Positions 1,276 to 46,024 of a DNA stretch of 64,000 bases are shown one piece after another. The stretch's first letter is position 1, and every line of letters begins with the position of its first letter. The notes below the pieces were generated by a model. That model saw only the letters and a program-made list of their open reading frames with translations. It ran no database searches and was not told the origin of the DNA. Position numbers and translations under genes: made by a program. This DNA is from an archaeon (lineage in GTDB: Archaea; Undinarchaeota; Undinarchaeia; Undinarchaeales; JBDRKL01), in assembly GCA_043814055.1 (NCBI GenBank), contig JBDRKL010000004.1, positions 80,518 through 144,517 of the forward strand, in the 5' to 3' direction.

Positions 1276-1686
1276 ATGCCTTTTGAATATATTGAGCACG
1301 AGGCGGACATTGGAATTAAAGGAACGGGCAAGACAGTGGAAGAGGCCTTTGCAGAGGGAGCCAGGGCAATGTTCGGTATTATGGTTGATTTGGAAAAAGT
1401 TGACCCTGTCAAAAGAATTGAGGTTGAATGCGAAGCTGAAAACATCGGGTCTCTTTTTGTTGAATTTCTTAATGCCCTGCTCGCTCAAGTCAACATTGCA
1501 GAAATGTTCTTTTCAAAGTTTGAAGTTAAGATTGACGGTACTCATCTGACTGCAACTGCGTGGGGTGAGCAGATTGACCAGGAGAAGCACCAGACCAAGA
1601 TTGAAGTCAAGGCGGCGACTTTCTCTGGGTTGAAGTATGAAGAGAAAGATGGGGTTCACTCAATTCAGTGTGTGGTTGATGTGTAG
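1276..1686 (+). CDS. Archease (RtcB cofactor)
   Basis: EYIEHEADIGI N-terminus, EVKAATF C-terminal motif; adjacent to rtcB. Confidence 0.95.
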   Translation: MPFEYIEHEADIGIKGTGKTVEEAFAEGARAMFGIMVDLEKVDPVKRIEVECEAENIGSLFVEFLNALLAQVNIAEMFFSKFEVKIDGTHLTATAWGEQIDQEKHQTKIEVKAATFSGLKYEEKDGVHSIQCVVDV

Positions 1687-1690
1687 AGTT

Positions 1691-1773
1691 AACCAAAGGC
1701 AATCAAATGGCTTGGTAAAGTCACAGCTTCATTTATTTCTTGTGGCTTGCTCTTCCTCCGCGAGCAGGCGGAG
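1691..1773 (+). repeat. Multi-hairpin repeat element (type A)
   Basis: Aligns along its length with 32362-32444; GGTA 1714-17, stem AAGTCACA/TGTGGCTT, 15-nt loop, 7-nt linker, CTCCGCGAGCAGGCGGAG 1756-1773. Confidence 0.85.
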
Positions 1774-1856
1774 AAGTCAAGGCGGCGACTTTCTCTGGGC
1801 TGAAATATGAGGAGAAGGACGGGGTGTATTCAGTAATTTGTGTTTTGGATGTATAA
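1773..1856 (+). pseudogene. Diverged duplicate of the last 28 codons of archease
   Basis: EVKAATFSGLKYEEKDGVYSVICVLDV* vs EVKAATFSGLKYEEKDGVHSIQCVVDV* (1603-1686); first 27 bp identical. Confidence 0.92.
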
Positions 1857-30253: not shown

Positions 30254-30795
30254 TTCACTTCGCAACAACAAACCCTGGGAAATTCAGGGAAGCAAAGGCT
30301 TTGTTTGAGAAAAACAATTTAGAACTCAGCCAGTTCAACGAAGAGCTCACTGAAATCCAGACCGATGATGTTGAGCAACTTGCCCTACACTCAGTCCGCG
30401 AGGCATACGAGAAGCTCAAGCAGCCTGTCTTCGTTGAGGACGCGGGCATTTTCATCAAATCGCTCAAGGGCTTCCCTGGTGTTTACAGCAAGCAGGCATA
30501 CCTCACAATCGGCTTGAAAGGAATATTGAAACTTCTTGAAGGCGTTGAAGACCGGAGCGCAGAGTTCTGCGCGGTCATCGCATACAAGGACGGCTCCGGC
30601 GAAAAAGTATTTAAAGGAGTCTGCATAGGTAATATCTCCCGCGAAGTGCGCGGGCGAGGTGGTTTTGGTTTTGACCCTATATTCCTCCCGAAAGGGCGCG
30701 AAAAAACTTTCGCCGAGGATGTTGAAACTAAATCCAACCTGTCTCATCGCGCGAACGCTTTGAGCAAATTAATTGGACATTTAAAAAATGGCTAG
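30250..30795 (+). CDS. rdgB: Non-canonical purine NTP pyrophosphatase RdgB/HAM1
   Basis: ATTNPGKF, VEDAG, GFPGVYS, GFGFDPIF, SHR. Confidence 0.95.
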   Translation: MIHFATTNPGKFREAKALFEKNNLELSQFNEELTEIQTDDVEQLALHSVREAYEKLKQPVFVEDAGIFIKSLKGFPGVYSKQAYLTIGLKGILKLLEGVEDRSAEFCAVIAYKDGSGEKVFKGVCIGNISREVRGRGGFGFDPIFLPKGREKTFAEDVETKSNLSHRANALSKLIGHLKNG

Positions 30796-31243
30796 AATGT
30801 ATTCACGAAGGAAGGGGAAATCCGGCAGCAAGAAGCCGATTAGTTCAGAGACTCCAAAATGGGTCAAGATTCCTCCAAAGGATGTTGAAACCATCATAGT
30901 TGAGCTCGCGAACAACGGCAGGCACGAAGCCGAGATAGGCATAATCCTGAGGGACCAGCACGGAGTTCCAAGCGTCAAGAATGTGACTGAGAAGAGCATC
31001 TCCCAGATACTCAGGGAGAACAAGCTGGAGCAGCGCCTCCCAAGCGACTTGACCCATCTCATAATCAGGGCTGCAAAAATAAAGAACCATATGAAAGCGC
31101 ACAAGCAGGATATGGACGGGAAGCGCGGCCTTCAGTTGACCGAATCAAAAATAAGGAGGCTAGCTAAGTACTACAAGGCTAATGGCGTTATTGAAAAAGA
31201 CTGGCGCTACGAGAACGAGCGGCTTGAATTCCTAGGCGGATAA
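30788..31243 (+). CDS. rps15: 30S ribosomal protein S15 (uS15)
   Basis: MARMYSRRKGKSGS, ILRDQHGVP, ESKIRRLAKYYK. Confidence 0.97.
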   Translation: MARMYSRRKGKSGSKKPISSETPKWVKIPPKDVETIIVELANNGRHEAEIGIILRDQHGVPSVKNVTEKSISQILRENKLEQRLPSDLTHLIIRAAKIKNHMKAHKQDMDGKRGLQLTESKIRRLAKYYKANGVIEKDWRYENERLEFLGG

Positions 31244-31245
31244 AA

Positions 31246-31875
31246 ATGGCAAGGGAAACAGTTGACAAGTGGAAGAGCAAGAAATTCTTTGATGTTGTAG
31301 CCCCGCCGCTATTCAGGAACGCTGTCATAGGGCAGACAATCGCATCAGACATTCGCAAAGTCCCGGGCCGAATAGTAATGGCCAACTACAGCACAATCAT
31401 AGGCGATCCGAACTCAAGGAACAACAAGGTCAAGCTCAAGTTCAAAATCACAGGTGTCAAGGGCGAGAAGGCAGAGACAGAGTTCCTTGGTCACGCGCTT
31501 GTCCAGGACTATCAGCGCAGTTTGGCGAGGCGCAGGACGAGCAAGGTATACAAGAATCAGGTAGTCACCACAAAGGACGGAAAAAGACTTCGCGTGAAAT
31601 CAATTATTGTTACAACTAGGCAGGTTAAGAAGTCAATGAAGAGCGAGCTTGGCAAGAAACTTCTTGAGTTCATGGCTGAGGATGCAAAGCAGTACAATTA
31701 CAATGAATTCATCAATGACGCAGTTTCTGGCAGGATTTCAATGCGAATGAAGAAAGGGCTTTCCAAGTTCTACCCGCTCAGGCACGCAGTGGTTGAAAAG
31801 ACCGAAGTTATTAAGGAAGCTGTGAAGGCTGAGCCGAAGGTTGAAGAGAAGCCTGCAGAAGAGAAGAAGGAATAG
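31246..31875 (+). CDS. rps3ae: 30S ribosomal protein S3Ae (eS1)
   Basis: DKWKSKKFF..APP, RRRTSK, TKDG motifs; follows rps15. Confidence 0.95.
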   Translation: MARETVDKWKSKKFFDVVAPPLFRNAVIGQTIASDIRKVPGRIVMANYSTIIGDPNSRNNKVKLKFKITGVKGEKAETEFLGHALVQDYQRSLARRRTSKVYKNQVVTTKDGKRLRVKSIIVTTRQVKKSMKSELGKKLLEFMAEDAKQYNYNEFINDAVSGRISMRMKKGLSKFYPLRHAVVEKTEVIKEAVKAEPKVEEKPAEEKKE

Positions 31876-31888
31876 GAAGCTTTATTAA
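31876..31888 (+). promoter_or_regulatory. BRE/TATA promoter of the C/D sRNA
   Basis: GAAGC-TTTATTAA ending about 22 nt upstream of the predicted sRNA 5' end. Confidence 0.55.
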
Positions 31889-31910
31889 TTCTATAAGACA
31901 CCATATTACT

Positions 31911-31975
31911 TGCAGTGAAGAAGTGAACACCCTCTGATACCGCCCAAAGATGATGAGTATGGTAGCTTCTGAGCA
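31911..31975 (+). ncRNA. Archaeal box C/D methylation guide sRNA
   Basis: TGC-A-[C GTGAAGA 31915-21]-12 nt-[D' CTGA 31934-37]-12 nt-[C' ATGATGA 31950-56]-12 nt-[D CTGA 31969-72]-GCA; terminal TGC/GCA stem. Confidence 0.8.
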
Positions 31976-32036
31976 CTCAATGATTTTTTGGTCCAGCTTT
32001 TGCGCGAGTTTTGCGAGCGGAAAAGGTGGGTGCCAG

Positions 32037-32084
32037 CACCCTCTGATACCGCCCAAAGATGATGAGTATGGTAGCTTCTGAGCA
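32037..32084 (+). repeat. Exact 48-bp duplicate of the sRNA 3' part
   Basis: Identical to 31928-31975. Confidence 0.97.
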
Positions 32085-32169
32085 ATCTTTTTCCTTCCAA
32101 TTTATCAAAAACGTCGGACGCACAGCGTCCGAGGCCAACGCGCTTCGCGCGTCTGGAGCTTGACCAAAA

Positions 32170-32564
32170 ACAGTGCTGCTGCTTGATGTTTTTGAAGCAG
32201 CACGTGGCCGCTCTCCGCGGCCAGGCGGAGATAGCAGTAGCTTCTGAGCAATCGTTTTCACAAACTTCTATTGAGGCTTCGCCGATGGCGAATGCCTCTG
32301 CTCTGCCTCCGCGAGCAGGCGGAGCTTCTGAGCAATCTAAACTTTTATTTTTCACAAATTTGACCGAAGGCACCCGAATGGCTTGGTAATGCCACAGCAT
32401 CACCAATTTTATGTGGCATGCTCTGCCTCCGCGAGCAGGCGGAGCTTCTGAGCAATCTAAACTTTTATTTTTCACAAATTTGACCGAAGGCATCCTACTT
32501 GCTCGGTAGTCCCGCAGCATCAAAAATTTCTTGCGGGACAAAGTGCCGCCTGATTTTTCAGGCG
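32170..32564 (+). repeat. Tandem cluster of four hairpin elements separated by copies of the sRNA 3' end AGCTTCTGAGCAATC
   Basis: Terminal hairpins at 32213-30, 32307-24, 32427-44, 32547-64; 74-bp exact repeat 32299-32372 = 32419-32492 (period 120). Confidence 0.9.
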
Positions 32565-32567
32565 AAC

Positions 32568-32581
32568 GAAAGCTTTATATA
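32568..32581 (+). promoter_or_regulatory. BRE/TATA promoter upstream of hairpin array
   Basis: GAAAGC-TTTATATA; no ORF follows within 370 nt. Confidence 0.6.
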
Positions 32582-32604: not shown

Positions 32605-32915
32605 CCTCCGGGGGTCTGACTGTATTGGGGAGGCATTTCCAATCTCTCAGAACAAGCTTGGGTTGAGGTGGGATCTGTGAAAGCCTTCGGGCTTACATGG
32701 AATTTATCTTGACCCACTCTAAGATTGGACTGGGTGGGGGAACGCGAAACCTTCGGGCGACGCGCAATTCAACCCGGTCCACTCTAAACTTGGATTGGGG
32801 TTGGACATGTAAAATTTTCGGATTTTATGCGAAAGATCTCAATCCACTCTAACCTGGACCAGGTGGGAGAGCGCGAAAGTTTCGGCAGACGCGTAATTTA
32901 ACTTGGTCCACTCTT
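32605..32915 (+). ncRNA. Putative novel structured RNA with four tandem covarying UUCG hairpins
   Basis: Units 32659-716, 32726-781, 32791-846, 32855-910; each TGG...TTCG...CCA followed by CTCT(AA); G-U pairs favour plus strand; ends approximate. Confidence 0.75.
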
Positions 32916-32955: not shown

Positions 32956-34317
32956 ATGGACTCCATCCTTAAAGAGGTTCTCAAGCGGGCTACGCCGACC
33001 GAGGCAGAGCACAAGAAATTGGAAAGCTTTGCCCAGCAGGTTGTCAGGAAACTCAAGGCAGCCGGCTACAGGGCAGACGTAGAGGGCTCTATCGCAAAGG
33101 ACACCTGGGTTTCAGGCACGCACGATGTTGATATTTTCATGTTTTTTGAGCCAGGAGTTCCAAGAAGCAAACTGGAAAAGGATGGCATAGCAGCTGGCAA
33201 GAAAATCATAAAAGGGCTCGGCGGCAGCCCAGTGATTGCGTATGCCGAGCACCCTTATGTGAAAGGTGCTATTGGGAATTTCAACCTTGATATAGTCCCC
33301 TGCTATTCAATCAAAAAGACCGAGGAGCTTCAGTCCGCGGTTGACAGGACACCGTTCCACACCGCTTACATAAAGAAAAACCTCACCAAAAAGCAGATGG
33401 GTGAGACGCGCCTGCTCAAGCAATTTATGAAAGGCGTCGGCGTGTACAGCGCCAAGGAAAAAGTGCGCGGCTTTTCAGGTTATCTCTGCGAGCTTTTAAT
33501 CCTTGAGTACAAGGACTTCATGGGCGTTGTGAGAGCTGCCAAGAACTGGAAGTACGGCACGGTCATAGACCTAGAAAAGTTCTACAAGGGCAGGGAGGCA
33601 TTTAACCTGTTCAAGCACTCCCTCGTCGTGATAGACCCAATAGACAAGGACAGGAATGTTGCAGCCGCGGTTGAGAATGACAACTTTGAGCGTTTTTCAT
33701 TTGCGTGCAGCGAGTTCCTCGCGAAGCCGTCTAAAAAATTCTTTTACCCTGAAAATGTTCAAGTTCTTAGCAAAGGCGAGTTGAAAAAGAAACTTGAAAA
33801 GCACGGCGAACTATTCGTGGTCAAGTTTAAGACGCCAAAACTCATAGAGGACATTCTTTATTCTCAATTGAGGCGCAGTTTGGCTTCCTTAGTTAGGGCT
33901 GTGAAGGAAGAAGATTTTGAGGTTATTGACTCGGCGTTCCACTCCGATGAGTATTCATATTTCTTACTTGAGCTAAAAACTGCAAAGCTACCGGGGATTA
34001 AAAAGCTTGACGGCCCTCCAATCCAGATAAGTCAGGAACACCAAAAAAAATTCACGGACAAGTACAAGAAGCAAAAGCCATGGGTGGAGAAAGGCCGCTG
34101 GTATGTTGAAGTTCCTAGGGAATATGTCCAAGCTGTAAAGTTGCTCAAGCAGTTGCTCTCAAATCCGCGGCAGATTGGGATTGGAAAATATATATCAGAC
34201 AGTCTTAAGAAAGATTATAAAATCCTTTCAGGCTCAGAATTGTCTAAGGAATACAAGGAAGAATTTGCAACGTTTTTAACGCAGTACTTGGTCAAGAAGA
34301 ACTCCTGGAATTGGTAA
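32956..34317 (+). CDS. cca: Archaeal class I CCA-adding enzyme
   Basis: VEGSIAKDTW..HDVDIF, YAEHPY, DIVPCY, AVDRTPFH, GFSGYLCELL, DPIDKDRNVAAAV. Confidence 0.97.
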   Translation: MDSILKEVLKRATPTEAEHKKLESFAQQVVRKLKAAGYRADVEGSIAKDTWVSGTHDVDIFMFFEPGVPRSKLEKDGIAAGKKIIKGLGGSPVIAYAEHPYVKGAIGNFNLDIVPCYSIKKTEELQSAVDRTPFHTAYIKKNLTKKQMGETRLLKQFMKGVGVYSAKEKVRGFSGYLCELLILEYKDFMGVVRAAKNWKYGTVIDLEKFYKGREAFNLFKHSLVVIDPIDKDRNVAAAVENDNFERFSFACSEFLAKPSKKFFYPENVQVLSKGELKKKLEKHGELFVVKFKTPKLIEDILYSQLRRSLASLVRAVKEEDFEVIDSAFHSDEYSYFLLELKTAKLPGIKKLDGPPIQISQEHQKKFTDKYKKQKPWVEKGRWYVEVPREYVQAVKLLKQLLSNPRQIGIGKYISDSLKKDYKILSGSELSKEYKEEFATFLTQYLVKKNSWNW

Positions 34318-45729: not shown

Positions 45730-45910
45730 TGGTGCGCCGGCCGGGACTTGAACCCGGGTCGCAGCCTGTTTGCAACCCACTTCGCAGATTTACTGCCGCG
45801 AAGCGGCTCCGAATCGCGTAGCGATTCGTTTTTTGGTCGAGCTTTTTGCGCGCGTAAGCGCGGAAAAAGGTCGTGGCAAGGCTGAATCATAGCCGCTAGA
45901 CCACCAGCGC
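45730..45910 (-). tRNA. tRNA-Gly(GCC) with 106-nt intron at 37/38 (45768-45873), CCA encoded
   Basis: Acceptor GCGCTGG/CCGGCGC, anticodon stem CAGCC/GGCTG, BHB helix TTGC/GCAA, T arm CCGGG-TTCAAGT-CCCGG. Confidence 0.92.
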
Positions 45911-45949
45911 ATTGACTCTTACAGAGTCTTTTTCAATACTTAAGAGTTC

Positions 45950-46024
45950 TGGTGGGCCCGACCGGAATTGAACCGGTGACCTTTTCCACGTCAAGGAAAT
46001 GTCATACCACTAGACCCCGGGCCC
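45950..46024 (-). tRNA. tRNA-Val(GAC), CCA encoded, G at position 8
   Basis: GGGCCCG/CGGGCCC, TTTCC-TTGACGT-GGAAA, ACCGG-TTCAATT-CCGGT. Confidence 0.92.

Follow-up and report, generated by a model that had tools for sequence, protein, structure and literature searches.

Duplicated gene ends and dispersed hairpin modules form an array behind a C/D box sRNA gene in an undinarchaeal genome

Arrays in which the end of a stable-RNA gene is repeated are known from E. coli, where the distal 178-bp repeats of tyrT (the rtT region) each end with the last ~19 nt of tRNA-Tyr, while small hairpin repeats are represented by the yeast mitochondrial GC clusters, bacterial REP/BIME and the Rickettsia palindromic elements. 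Casposons prefer the 3′ ends of tRNA or EF-2 genes and can stack in tandem, and the Cas1 stagger is fixed (14–15 bp, or one CRISPR repeat), with leader-proximal growth. Sublocation classes of integration into tRNA genes were reportedly distinguished by Williams in 2002. FoSTeS/MMBIR has been reported chiefly for rearrangements in eukaryotes and bacteria, where it is a rare event, and to our knowledge not as the recurrent spread of one hairpin-module family to gene ends. Double-hairpin elements occur in the mitochondria of Allomyces and chytrids (Paquin, Laforest & Lang 2000, as cited in PMC3787672), integration of PYG1 at a tRNA gene in Pyrococcus yayanosii is associated with 44-bp repeats (PMC9897764), and a paper on Pyrobaculum C/D sRNAs reports a MITE-like sRNA element of another kind, which bears TIRs (PMC6009581). 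We found no description of elements such as those reported below in the literature on Undinarchaeota repeats and archaeal tRNA-gene target duplications.

The genome studied here is a 980-kb metagenome-assembled genome (MAG) of 14 contigs, 82% complete and 92% coding. DPANN genomes are tiny and tightly packed; in this one, repeats appear to insert repeatedly at gene boundaries. The locus behind one small RNA (sRNA) gene, located within a 64,000-nt stretch that was analysed as a whole (the window), is the largest example of an undescribed, enzyme-less-looking type of DNA insertion at gene ends, and also the richest single record of it, with five copies of the gene end, at least three kinds of insert and the empty state in outgroups. 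We consider it probable that the array is a lineage-specific pile-up, formed by duplicative insertion of dispersed hairpin modules that encode no protein.

Archaeal C/D box sRNAs have the boxes C (RUGAUGA), D′ (CUGA), C′ (UGAUGA) and D (CUGA), guides of 10–12 nt and a short terminal stem. The gene at 31911..31975 (+) has the same box order (C GUGAAGA, 31915-31921; D′ CUGA, 31934-31937; C′ AUGAUGA, 31950-31956; D CUGA, 31969-31972), 12-nt guides and a UGC/GCA terminal stem. Its matches in Rfam are weak C/D matches below gathering (sR14, E = 0.043, and snoPyro_CD; 17.8–17.9 bits), and the C/D box assignment therefore rests on architecture and conservation. The boxes and the D′ guide are invariant in nine aligned relatives, and the D′ guide (GUGAACACCC) is perfectly complementary over 10 bp to the 23S rRNA of this genome (C12:9250-12211(-)), near position 2619; for the D guide, the search gave no clear target. 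Upstream lies rps3ae, encoding ribosomal protein S3Ae (31246..31875, +; Pfam Ribosomal_S3Ae, E = 1e-49), and the gene order rps3ae–sRNA–cca is kept across the order. A BRE/TATA-like box (AAGCTTTATTAAT, 31877..31889, +), ~22 nt ahead of the sRNA 5′ end, is the presumed sRNA promoter, with similar boxes upstream of the sRNA in relatives and at 32569-32581. The latter box (AAAGCTTTATATA, +) forms the right border of the array, just outside it, and presumably serves as promoter for the hairpin RNA array and for cca. Judged by its sequence, this methylation-guide sRNA gene is real, conserved and still intact.

The earlier note's reading of the repeated word as the 3′ end of a small-RNA gene is upheld. 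The same sRNA lies between rps3ae and cca in 18 relatives, once in each, and AGCTTCTGAGC is single-copy in all 13 order-level genomes and in five metagenome contigs carrying the sRNA. The gap from sRNA to cca is ~70 nt in three relatives (G004, G008 and G012), compared with 980 nt here. Since the relatives carry the sRNA end once, three of them with so short a gap, the array is lineage-specific. Searches for the exact rps3ae protein in other assemblies and for the exact 24-nt sRNA pattern in metagenome contigs gave no match.

The repeated word AGCTTCTGAGCA, which comprises the D box and the 3′ end of the sRNA, is found in five exact copies on the + strand within 490 nt (31964-31975, 32073-32084, 32239-32250, 32323-32334 and 32443-32454); the earlier note had also counted five, with two ends (32333 and 32453) placed one base short. 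When one mismatch was allowed, the window contained six matches against 0.72 expected, a number reached in 0/100 shuffles, and five of the six exact occurrences of this 12-mer in the whole 980-kb genome are in the array. Copies 1 and 2 are part of a 48-nt exact repeat (31928-31975 = 32037-32084), copies 2 and 3 share 17 nt exactly (23 nt with one mismatch), 15–16 nt are shared between copies 2/3 and copies 4/5, and copies 4 and 5 are embedded in a 74-nt exact repeat (32299-32372 = 32419-32492), in line with the 48 bp, about 15–18 bp and longer duplications noted before. The duplicated pieces thus measure 48, 23, about 23–29 and about 37 nt, the last inside the 74-nt repeat. Start-to-start spacing of the copies is 109, 166, 84 and 120 nt, and TRF reported a single 120-nt repeat (x1.9) only. 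The possibility that the repeated word belongs to the inserted modules, and not to the sRNA, was rejected: CTTCTGAGCAATC was confined to the array in a whole-genome search, and elsewhere the terminal hairpin of the modules (h2) is followed by other gene ends.

The segments between the copies differ from each other and fold into strong hairpins (z-scores −3.2 to −5.0), and in two of them the terminal hairpin CTCCGCGAGCAGGCGGAG shares its final two bases, AG, with the repeat, much as had been seen before. Copy 1 is contained in the intact sRNA gene (T48, 31928-31975) and has a flank, CTCAATGA, unlike that of any relative. Insert X1 (61 nt, 31976..32036, −) is an inverted 'tRNA-trailer' module composed of a pseudo tRNA end, CCTTTTC, a small hairpin and CAAAAGCTGGACCAAAAAA; it brings a new T6 run, at 31985-31990, directly behind the sRNA, and its core, which was compared with the tRNA-Ser trailer, matches C10:117313-117332, C12:49113, C9:51795 and C4:126346. 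Copy 2 (32037..32093, +) consists of the 3′ 48 nt of the sRNA, including the D′, C′ and D boxes without the C box and identical at 48/48 positions to 31928-31975, and of the ancestral trailer ATCTTTTTC, which matches the GAGCAAC(C)TTTTT of relatives. Insert X2 (32094..32236, +) has four hairpins, with the trailer-module core AGCTTGACCAAAAA at 32157-32170 and the terminal hairpin h2 CTCCGCGGCCAGGCGGAG at 32213-32230; its part 32107-32171 is 92% identical to C12:3597-3661(-) (fold z −3.2 and −3.3). Copy 3 (32237..32261, +) is made up of GTAGCTTCTGAGCA and the trailer ATCGTTTTCAC, its 23-nt match to copy 2 extending into the trailer.

Insert M3 (32262..32324, +; z = −3.5) is a double hairpin, with h1 at 32273-32298, a linker, h2 at 32307-32324 and the left extension AAACTTCTATT, and is 94% identical to C12:3743-3794(-) and 84–90% identical to four other loci. 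Copy 4 (32323..32361, +) has the trailer ATC-TAAACTTTTAT-TTTTCACAAATT, with an 11-nt indel relative to copy 3. Insert M4 (32362..32444, +) has three hairpins, namely h0 (GACCGAAGGCA...), h1 with a 15-nt loop and h2 at 32427-32444, and is 85% identical to C4:82223-82290, a module behind the archease gene. Copy 5 (32443..32481, +), part of the 74-nt repeat, is identical to copy 4 and its trailer, and is followed by module M5 (32482..32564, +; z = −5.0), which has the three-hairpin architecture of M4 with a different terminal hairpin. In their middle parts M5 and M4 agree at 32/46 positions only, with compensatory stem changes in M5, and parts of it match C8:36279-36300, C12:34854-34879 and C1:6822-6858. 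The blocks are therefore closer to other loci (92–94% at C12:3597-3794; 85% at C4:82223-82290) than units 4 and 5 are to each other (70%). Copies 2–5 retain the ancestral trailer GAGCAATC and its T-run, the new flank being found at copy 1 only; a T-run is present in every unit, and a TATA-like AAACTTTTATTTTT in both units 4 and 5. Terminal inverted repeats were not found in the inserted blocks.

All these blocks are members of dispersed hairpin families, consistent with the earlier description of the inserts as mini-elements. A census of this genome gave 33 copies of h2 and 17 of h1–h2, and the h2 pattern with at most one mismatch has 24 copies here against 0–5 in 12 relatives. In 19 copies of the double hairpin, 94.7% of cells are paired, and 25 cells are changed on both sides, compared with 7.3 expected (0/500 shuffles). 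Both h1 and h2 are conserved across two families, with h2 being 100% identical, the left ends of the inserts vary (h2 alone, h1+h2, h0+h1+h2, or trailer module + h2), and 21/29 modules are co-oriented with the upstream gene. Rfam searches, run both with the gathering threshold and with E values up to 10, gave no family for the hairpin blocks, other matches being at chance level. Short, non-coding, present in many copies and expanded in one lineage, with compensatory changes, the modules belong with dispersed hairpin repeats; they resemble the known small hairpin repeats in being G+C-rich, of one to three hairpins and 50–100 nt, arranged in mosaic arrays, kept foldable and without a coding gene of their own. 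Unlike those repeats, for which target duplication is none or 2–3 nt, they are accompanied by 11–84 nt of gene end and have a right junction exactly at the terminal hairpin, and unlike REPs, which have the Y1 partner RAYT, no Y1 gene was found here. Roughly 100 loci of short dispersed repeats are present in the genome.

Duplication of the target is a property of the modules genome-wide, in support of the target-duplicating insertion proposed earlier. We searched, for all 33 h2 copies, for an exact match of ≥11 nt between the 3′ flank of h2 and the 450 nt upstream, and the sequence after h2 repeated the upstream gene end in 16/33, with 3/33 in the downstream and 0/33 in the reverse-complement control. 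In most copies the repeat begins 0–6 nt past h2. The duplicated gene ends (repeats of 11–84 nt) are those of tRNA, sRNA and protein genes, and starts of protein genes with their ribosome binding site (RBS) are duplicated too, in the opposite orientation; the architecture of module plus duplicated gene end occurs at >15 independent loci. Arrays are also found at tRNA-Pro, tRNA-Ser, tRNA-Glu, tRNA-Met and one protein gene end, so that a search of other RNA gene ends, as the earlier note had advised, did find similar arrays, while specificity for small-RNA ends did not hold. Seven of nine tRNA 3′ duplicates start in the T-loop, 16–19 nt from the CCA end, five of these seven being preceded by an element-borne GTTC, and the pseudo-ends behind tRNA-Leu(GAG) and tRNA-Leu(TAA) are closer to each other than to their own tRNAs. 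At archease and at one protein-coding gene of contig C7, most differences between the duplicated ends are synonymous, and a perfectly identical block lies next to them. Perfect tandem arrays are found behind tRNA-Met (90 nt x3, carrying the tRNA-Met end) and tRNA-Thr (67 nt x3), the former indicating that such units amplify by unequal exchange.

Together, these observations support repeated target-duplicating insertion as the probable origin of the array, with the qualification that units 4/5, perhaps 3–5, of what had been taken for repeated integrations may stem from tandem amplification. The modules would have been inserted one after another directly behind the sRNA gene, each added block being closed on its right by a re-copied sRNA 3′ piece and T-rich trailer, so that the gene-proximal copy would stay whole and older ends would be pushed downstream. 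Since the insertion copies 11–84 nt of the gene end, the gene survives. We propose that the cell itself, with its machinery for recombination or replication, carried out the insertion, duplicatively and at the DNA level: strand exchange or DNA synthesis would exit the locus at the T-run behind the gene, copy a hairpin module from another locus, and return upstream at a short homology, with the duplication arising by re-copying from the return point. At the sRNA the return homology may be AGCTTC, common to the sRNA and to modules whose terminal hairpin precedes CTTC (h2+CTTC is present at C10:139528-139549 and C4:95872-95893), and at tRNAs it may be the universal T-loop box TTCRAATCC. Unequal crossing-over between copies could then amplify and reshuffle units, as in units 4/5.

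The template-switch or homology mechanism specifically is held tentatively, with somewhat more doubt than confidence, and as one explanation the duplicative insertion and this mechanism are moderately probable, a grading that is a compromise between the two parts. The process resembles FoSTeS/MMBIR in that duplications of variable length surround a segment that was copied from another place and may have either orientation, with short homologies at the joints and no need for a dedicated enzyme; it differs from FoSTeS/MMBIR as described in being recurrent, and template switching is here a proposal. Several observations weigh against this mechanism. The tentative case for microhomology consists of matches of 2–10 nt, and the T-loop start of the tRNA duplicates is also expected from a T-loop-class integrase or from a reverse transcriptase (RT) stop at m1A58. 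The archease and C7 ends look more like imported replacement ends, from site-specific or Campbell-type recombination, than like in-situ copying. No donor carrying the exact junction was found; the closest paralogues, 85–94% identical, have other flanks.

One possibility, which we consider unlikely, is that an integrase or transposase acting in trans is responsible both for inserting the modules and for duplicating the target, the modules being non-autonomous (MITE-like, or a mini-att with a copied gene end). The enzyme, perhaps a casposase-like one, a tyrosine recombinase of the T-loop class or a novel protein, could be encoded in the missing 18% of the genome, since an 82%-complete genome could miss an enzyme, or be supplied by a virus or host cell. 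Such an enzyme would fit the precise right end of the inserts, with h2 meeting the repeat at an offset of 0–6 nt, the T-loop starts, which resemble T-loop-class att sites, the 48-nt repeat, sized like archaeal att sites (44-bp repeats, PMC9897764), the archease ends, with a block of identity and then diverged arms as in attL/attR, and hairpins kept by covariation, as for protein-recognised ends. As in tyrosine-recombinase integration into tRNA genes, the insert lies between direct repeats taken from an RNA gene's 3′ part, and successive integrations can give tandem arrays with partial gene copies. Unlike in those systems, the inserts are 46–150 nt and not kilobases (<150 nt in our att-type comparison), and starts and ends of protein genes are also used. 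Moreover, the variable repeat lengths (11–84 nt) and insert left ends argue against an enzyme with a fixed stagger, and the targets (tRNA ends, sRNA end, start codons with RBS, stop codons) have no common sequence. Cas1 (PF01867) gave no match in the 82%-complete genome, while control genomes matched, and no Phage_integrase, Y1_Tnp, TnpB, DDE_Tnp_1, rve or RVT_1 domain was found in it. MITEs have terminal inverted repeats and a target-site duplication whose length is fixed and matched to a transposase family. A classical MITE/IS reading was rejected, the blocks having no TIRs, duplications of 11–84 nt and no DDE, Y1 or TnpB.

Duplication of the target and the formal order of repeat, insert and repeat are shared with casposon integration and with CRISPR spacer acquisition, the latter being the process to which the earlier note had likened the locus. 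CRISPR arrays have identical direct repeats of a fixed length (about 24–40 nt), at regular distances, with unique spacers of uniform size. The shared repeats of 12–48 nt, the uneven spacing and 'spacers' that are dispersed genomic hairpin modules are not those of a CRISPR array, and the lengths vary fourfold within one array, unlike in Cas1 systems. The youngest duplications, two perfectly identical ones, are found one at each end of the array, at odds with the polarised, CRISPR-like growth that the earlier note had asked about. The CRISPR/casposon reading was rejected on repeat geometry and the absent Cas1, and the CRISPR/integrase analogy is only formal, because lengths vary, growth is non-polar, the site is not sRNA-specific and no enzyme of spacer-acquisition or integrase type was found in the 82%-complete genome.

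Compared with tyrT/rtT, the locus likewise consists of a stable-RNA gene followed by consecutive units that all end in a copy of the RNA 3′ segment, with the first copy as the functional end; tyrT/rtT differs in having near-identical tandem units, whereas the units here are heterologous members of dispersed families, with duplicated lengths of 12–48 nt, and the phenomenon is genome-wide. We assign a similarly low probability to a history of only one or two insertions, after which unequal crossing-over made units 3–5 (possibly more) and ectopic gene conversion from dispersed paralogues overwrote the inner hairpins; the array would then be a record of recombination instead of repeated integration. 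Copies 4 and 5 share their left boundary exactly, the 74-nt block is 100% identical between flanking halves that are 70% identical, the perfect arrays behind tRNA-Met and tRNA-Thr show that tandem units do arise, and conserved module ends could anchor conversion. X1, an inverted trailer module with a 48-nt repeat, and X2, which has four different hairpins and a 23-nt repeat, are however unlike units 3–5 in boundaries and content, so that at least three separate events are still needed, and M3 lacks both h0 and the 11-nt trailer indel.

Much less probable is an RNA-templated origin, in which RT would copy the 3′ end of a transcript from the U-run to a block (e.g. m1A57/58 in tRNAs), switch to the 3′ end of a module RNA (h2) and yield a hybrid cDNA that is incorporated behind the gene. 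The tRNA duplicates span T-loop A57–A59 to the trailer T-run, three of the four sRNA-end duplications end just past the T-run (the fourth at the mature sRNA end), and the fixed 3′ and variable 5′ ends of the inserts resemble 5′ truncation. The absence of RVT_1 matches speaks against this, as do duplicates that include trailer bases without post-transcriptional CCA, the oppositely oriented duplication of gene starts with RBS, and the lack of any known cause for an RT stop 12–14 or 48 nt from the sRNA end.

We likewise give very little weight to a selected function of the array, be it as small transcription units, as hairpins that act as terminators or insulators and separate the sRNA from the cca promoter, or as D-box decoys for C/D RNP proteins. 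The 12-nt copies are 100% identical between variable flanks, and the compensatory changes, the predominant co-orientation with the upstream gene, the T-runs and the TATA-like motif in units 4/5 could all be read in this way; conservation of h1/h2 across two families could mean function, and to that extent weighs against selfish spread. Relatives live without the array, though, the hairpin blocks have no Rfam match, and modules also lie beside duplicated starts and ends of protein genes, at which a role connected with the sRNA would be meaningless. The extra copies themselves show no sign of function as far as sequence can tell, because copies 2–5 lack a C box and a T-run lies behind each, and we favour reading the array as selfish or neutral DNA that a 92%-coding genome, with few spacers free, tolerates in this one. 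An assembly artefact, with repeats mis-joined or expanded, is hardly credible even for a MAG in which two contigs end within similar tandem arrays, since ordinary reads are longer than the 48- and 74-nt repeats, the architecture is found again elsewhere, and X1, X2, M3, the inner M4 and M5 are each unique in the array and fit only between two repeat copies, so that the assembled order is the only linear path and collapse could presumably only hide extra units, not create the array.

If the duplicative insertion is host-driven, by template switching or recombination, selfish DNA would spread without an enzyme of its own in a minimal genome, and a route would exist for swapping in new gene termini, terminators and ribosome binding sites. 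A bolder idea, which we think improbable, is that the modules make up a new class of mobile element in DPANN archaea, one that encodes no protein, anchored on transcription-unit ends (by the T-run and by the T-loop or other short homology), perhaps RNA-templated or moving via tiny recombining circles, and regenerating the invaded gene end each time. If so, arrays would record successive invasions, and gene termini, tRNA introns and intergenic modules would exchange sequence between lineages.

Partial tRNA and sRNA copies and spurious ORFs will mislead automatic annotation; at this locus, a 211-aa antisense ORF (31906-32541) was rejected as a protein gene, as it has no Pfam family and overlaps the sRNA. 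With the strict box pattern, one further C/D sRNA only was found in the genome (C12:49161-49210, −), which is accompanied by a trailer module without a duplicated 3′ end. At C12:72254-72355, it is the probable 5′ end of an sRNA, with its C box, that is duplicated around a module.

The interval between rps15/rps3ae (30788–31875) and the CCA-adding enzyme gene cca (32956–34317), both delimited by crude ORF calls, carries a 65 nt C/D box sRNA on the + strand (31911–31975), preceded by approximately 22 nt by a BRE/TATA-like box directly after rps3ae (31877–31889). The ends of the sRNA pair in a terminal stem (UGC/GCA); its boxes read GUGAAGA (C), CUGA (D′), AUGAUGA (C′) and CUGA (D), with two 12-nt guides, and Rfam C/D models match it weakly (sR14, E = 0.043). 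The remaining genomes of the order Undinarchaeales, including Naiadarchaeum, UBA55 and UBA543, have the same sRNA after rps3ae, with the four boxes and the D′ guide invariant in the alignment, and the genome's own 23S rRNA contains a perfect 10-bp complement to the D′ guide GUGAACACCC. The repeated word of the array takes in the final four bases of the guide, the D box and the 3′ strand of the stem, which makes it the terminus of a real gene, in agreement with the earlier note. The 16-nt D′ guide plus box GTGAACACCCTCTGAT was also detected in Woesearchaeota, Altiarchaeota, Hodarchaeota and Methanosarcinales MAGs (loci L024, L029, L049, L062, L073, L082 and L091), which suggests that the guide for methylating this 23S site is conserved widely.

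The 12-mer AGCTTCTGAGCA was found five times on the + strand (31964–31975, 32073–32084, 32239–32250, 32323–32334 and 32443–32454), which agrees with the earlier count, although two of the end coordinates given then were one base short. Allowing up to one mismatch there were six matches in the window versus 0.72 expected by chance, with none of 100 shuffles reaching six, and the exact 12-mer was present only once more in the whole 980-kb genome, while the longer CTTCTGAGCAATC was confined to the array in a search of the same genome. The lengths shared between copies differed: 48 nt for an exact repeat (31928–31975 and 32037–32084), 17 nt exact or 23 nt with one mismatch between copies 2 and 3, 15–16 nt between copies 2/3 and 4/5, and a 74-nt exact block (32299–32372 and 32419–32492) holding copies 4 and 5.

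The sequence AGCTTCTGAGC or its local variant is single-copy in all 13 genomes of the order and in five metagenome contigs carrying the sRNA, and no second sRNA end was found in any of these relatives. Three of them (G004, G008 and G012) have approximately 70 nt between the sRNA and cca, and three others (G001, G007 and G010) an unrelated ORF in this gap. In every relative the sRNA ends with CUGAGCAAC followed by a T-run. Copies 2–5 keep this trailer (GAGCAATC and the T-run) and copy 1 is followed by the new sequence CTCAATGATTTTTTGG, indicating that the functional gene is the leftmost copy, and that the ancestral downstream flank was displaced rightward with approximately 590 nt (31976–32564) added in this lineage.

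Each block between or after the copies folds into strong hairpins (z-scores −3.2 to −5.0) and belongs to a family with members scattered through the genome, with distant loci matching the blocks better than the blocks match one another. Block X1 (31976–32036) is an inverted copy of a module usually trailing tRNA genes, in which a pseudo tRNA end is followed by CCTTTTC, a small hairpin and CAAAAGCTTGACCAAAAA, as compared with the tRNA-Ser trailer. Block X2 (32094–32236) has four hairpins, with 65 nt (32107–32171) being 92% identical to contig C12:3597–3661. The double hairpin M3 (32262–32324) is 94% identical to C12:3743–3794, and is followed by the three-hairpin modules M4 (32362–32444), which shares 85% identity with the module that follows the archease gene (C4:82223–82290), and M5 (32482–32564). 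The inner halves of the units containing M4 and M5 are only 32/46 identical, adjoining a stretch that is 74/74 identical. Many tRNA genes measured 100–270 nt by ARAGORN due to large introns, such as tRNA-Met (C12:152935–153119), tRNA-Trp (C6:51029–51297) and tRNA-Gly (C4, near window 45770–45950), and the tRNA-Met intron holds the trailer module AACCTTTTTCCGACCTTCGGCCGCAAAAAGCTTGACCAAAAA, which also follows tRNA genes and, in inverted orientation, forms X1.

In the double hairpin, h1 (GRGGCTTCGC...GCGAAUGCCYC, in which one U is bulged) is joined by a linker to the terminal hairpin h2 (CTCCGCGRSCAGGCGGAG). Across 19 double-hairpin copies, of which relatives supplied three, pairing was kept in 94.7% of cells versus 85.3% in shuffles and 42–45% when slid, and 25 cells had changed on both sides versus 7.3 expected, which was not reached in any of 500 shuffles. 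The genome contains 24 copies of h2 (33 with looser matching), versus 1–5 in three genomes of one neighbouring family and none in nine others, thus representing a lineage-specific expansion. Double-hairpin modules were also located inside long ORFs (C9:26243–26300 in a 500-aa ORF, C4:24800–24902 and C12:93128–93186), and are in-frame insertions of the Rickettsia RPE type unless the ORFs were called too long.

The arrangement at the sRNA recurs elsewhere in the genome. For all 33 h2 copies, the last 3 nt of h2 with 35 nt of flank (38 nt) were sought in the 450 nt upstream, and 16/33 had an exact direct repeat of at least 11 nt, usually starting 0–6 nt past h2, versus three in the downstream control (two of these inside the sRNA-end array) and none in the reverse-complement control. 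What is duplicated is an end of an adjacent gene: for tRNAs the 3′ end (Pro and Ser-GGA, three copies each, Ser-CGA, Glu, Leu-GAG, Leu-TAA, Tyr and Met) or the 5′ end (Glu-TTC, three copies, and His), for a further probable C/D sRNA the 5′ end, and for protein genes either the start together with its RBS or the 3′ end (archease and a gene on C7). Similar arrays at other sRNA and tRNA ends, which the earlier note had suggested looking for, are therefore present, but the involvement of protein genes contradicts a specificity for small-RNA ends. Duplication length ranged from 11 to about 84 nt, and the inserts have a fixed right end at h2 and a variable left end (h2 alone, h1 and h2, a further hairpin h0 with h1 and h2, or a trailer module with h2). 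The last 28 codons of archease are present twice around a three-hairpin module (window 1603–1856; C4:82120–82373), and the displaced end still reads as a C-terminus with stop codon. At C7:33836–34084, three successive C-terminus versions (EEALELWE*, EEALALWK* and EAEALELFKA*) are separated by two double-hairpin modules, making this a protein-gene counterpart of the sRNA array.

From the nested repeats we infer an order of events. Placement of X1 after the mature sRNA end would have given the 48-nt duplication, and X2 would have been placed after ATCTTTTTC with a 23-nt duplication, later acquiring one mismatch. M3 would then have been placed after the T-run with a duplication of ~23–29 nt, the right copy subsequently gaining an 11-nt indel, and M4 added with a duplication of ~37 nt, which would show as a 74-nt identical block because the module ends are conserved. 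Three of the four duplications end just past the T-run, and one at the mature 3′ end. The 48-nt and 74-nt duplications, being perfectly identical, would be the youngest, and lie at opposite ends of the array, which argues against polar, CRISPR-like growth. The M4 and M5 units, perhaps with that of M3, could equally stem from unequal crossing-over followed by ectopic conversion, and such amplification does occur in this genome, as perfect 90-nt tandem units are present in threefold arrays at C12:153040–153280 and C13:47385–47655. Each unit ends on the last 17 nt of tRNA-Met, inside a 47-nt repeated segment extending upstream. Since two contigs (C12 and C13) end within these arrays, they probably caused the assembly breaks, and may exceed their visible length.

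With regard to mechanism, six-frame searches of the 82%-complete genome detected no Cas1, tyrosine recombinase, Y1 transposase, TnpB, DDE_Tnp_1, rve or reverse transcriptase domains, with control genomes matching in each search. The PF00589 search did not even yield a XerA-like recombinase, while all 14 control genomes matched; this absence may reflect the 82% completeness. The array blocks lack terminal inverted repeats, duplication lengths vary far more than one staggered-cut enzyme would allow, and the joints sit at sequences common to several loci. Left joints are in or after T-runs, which trailer modules also carry. Modules at C10:139528–139549 and C4:95872–95893 have h2 followed by CTTC, and the AGCTTC common to these and GGUAGCUUCUGA of the sRNA would account for copies 4 and 5 starting on the same base. 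One module in a relative ends with GGCGGAGTTCCTAAACC without any tRNA nearby, and the pseudo-ends of two tRNA-Leu genes are closer to each other than to their own tRNAs. Taken together, the shared joint sequences, undetected enzyme domains, missing inverted repeats and variable duplications lead us to favour a homology-guided, host-driven process, in which replication or repair would switch template, or strands would be exchanged with a locus bearing a module, with a return upstream of the departure point and unequal exchange afterwards. Seven of nine tRNA 3′ duplicates start in the universal T-loop box, 16–19 nt from the CCA end, with an element-borne GTTC preceding five of the seven. The same start would be expected from T-loop-class integrases and from a reverse transcriptase stop at m1A57/58, and keeps both alive. 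Rival readings also draw on the 100% identity of h2 across two families, and on the archease and C7 ends, which look like imported replacement gene ends, with an identical block followed by arms differing mainly at synonymous sites (in archease 0/27 versus 16/57 mismatches, 9 of the 16 being single synonymous changes).

The closest formal analogue of the array is the distal repeat region of E. coli tyrT, where units each end with the last ~19 nt of tRNA-Tyr. The modules resemble mitochondrial double-hairpin elements, GC clusters, bacterial REP/BIME and Rickettsia RPEs, and the stacking of units resembles casposon or CRISPR integration. CRISPR (no Cas1 in the 82%-complete genome, non-polar growth, variable repeat lengths), casposons (likewise no Cas1 in that assembly) and MITEs (no terminal inverted repeats, variable duplication length) were rejected. 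The bracketing repeats resemble att duplications at tRNA genes, for example 44-bp repeats (PMC9897764). Full-text searches of the literature on Undinarchaeota and other archaea surfaced no description of such elements. The array is of the small-hairpin-repeat kind, and the earlier proposal of repeated target-duplicating integration is supported as far as insertion with duplication is concerned, but the results lend no support to CRISPR-like behaviour, to polar growth or to a specificity for sRNAs.

Copy 2 lacks a C box and copies 3–5 have the D box only, with a T-run after each copy, and X1 supplies the functional sRNA with a new predicted T6 terminator 10 nt past its end. An antisense 211-aa ORF had no family match. 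We see no evidence in the sequence for use of the array to the cell, and it has the look of selfish or neutral DNA, tolerated in one of the few spacers left by ORFs that cover ~92% of the genome on a crude count. A separate tandem hairpin array upstream of cca (32605–32915) has UGG...CCA-CUCUAA units with UUCG-type loops, and similar units before cca in two further families of the order (L011 of G007, ~380–860, and L013 of G010, ~330–560, minus-strand reading) indicate that, in contrast to the sRNA-end array, it is conserved. Another dispersed family, in which a locus has up to 17 BLAST partners, was located outside the window in short gaps between co-directional genes (e.g. C11:9159–9255, C11:10047–10127, C7:73340–73439, C10:123838–123946 and C13:24744–24850), and consists of ATGAGACACAAAGC..GCTTCGTGTTC and ATTTCAAAGCTGATGAAATGGAGGAAACTTTGAAATG. 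Its second hairpin encloses the Shine-Dalgarno sequence GGAGG and ends on the start codon of the next gene, which looks like a mobile or standardised translation-initiation cassette.
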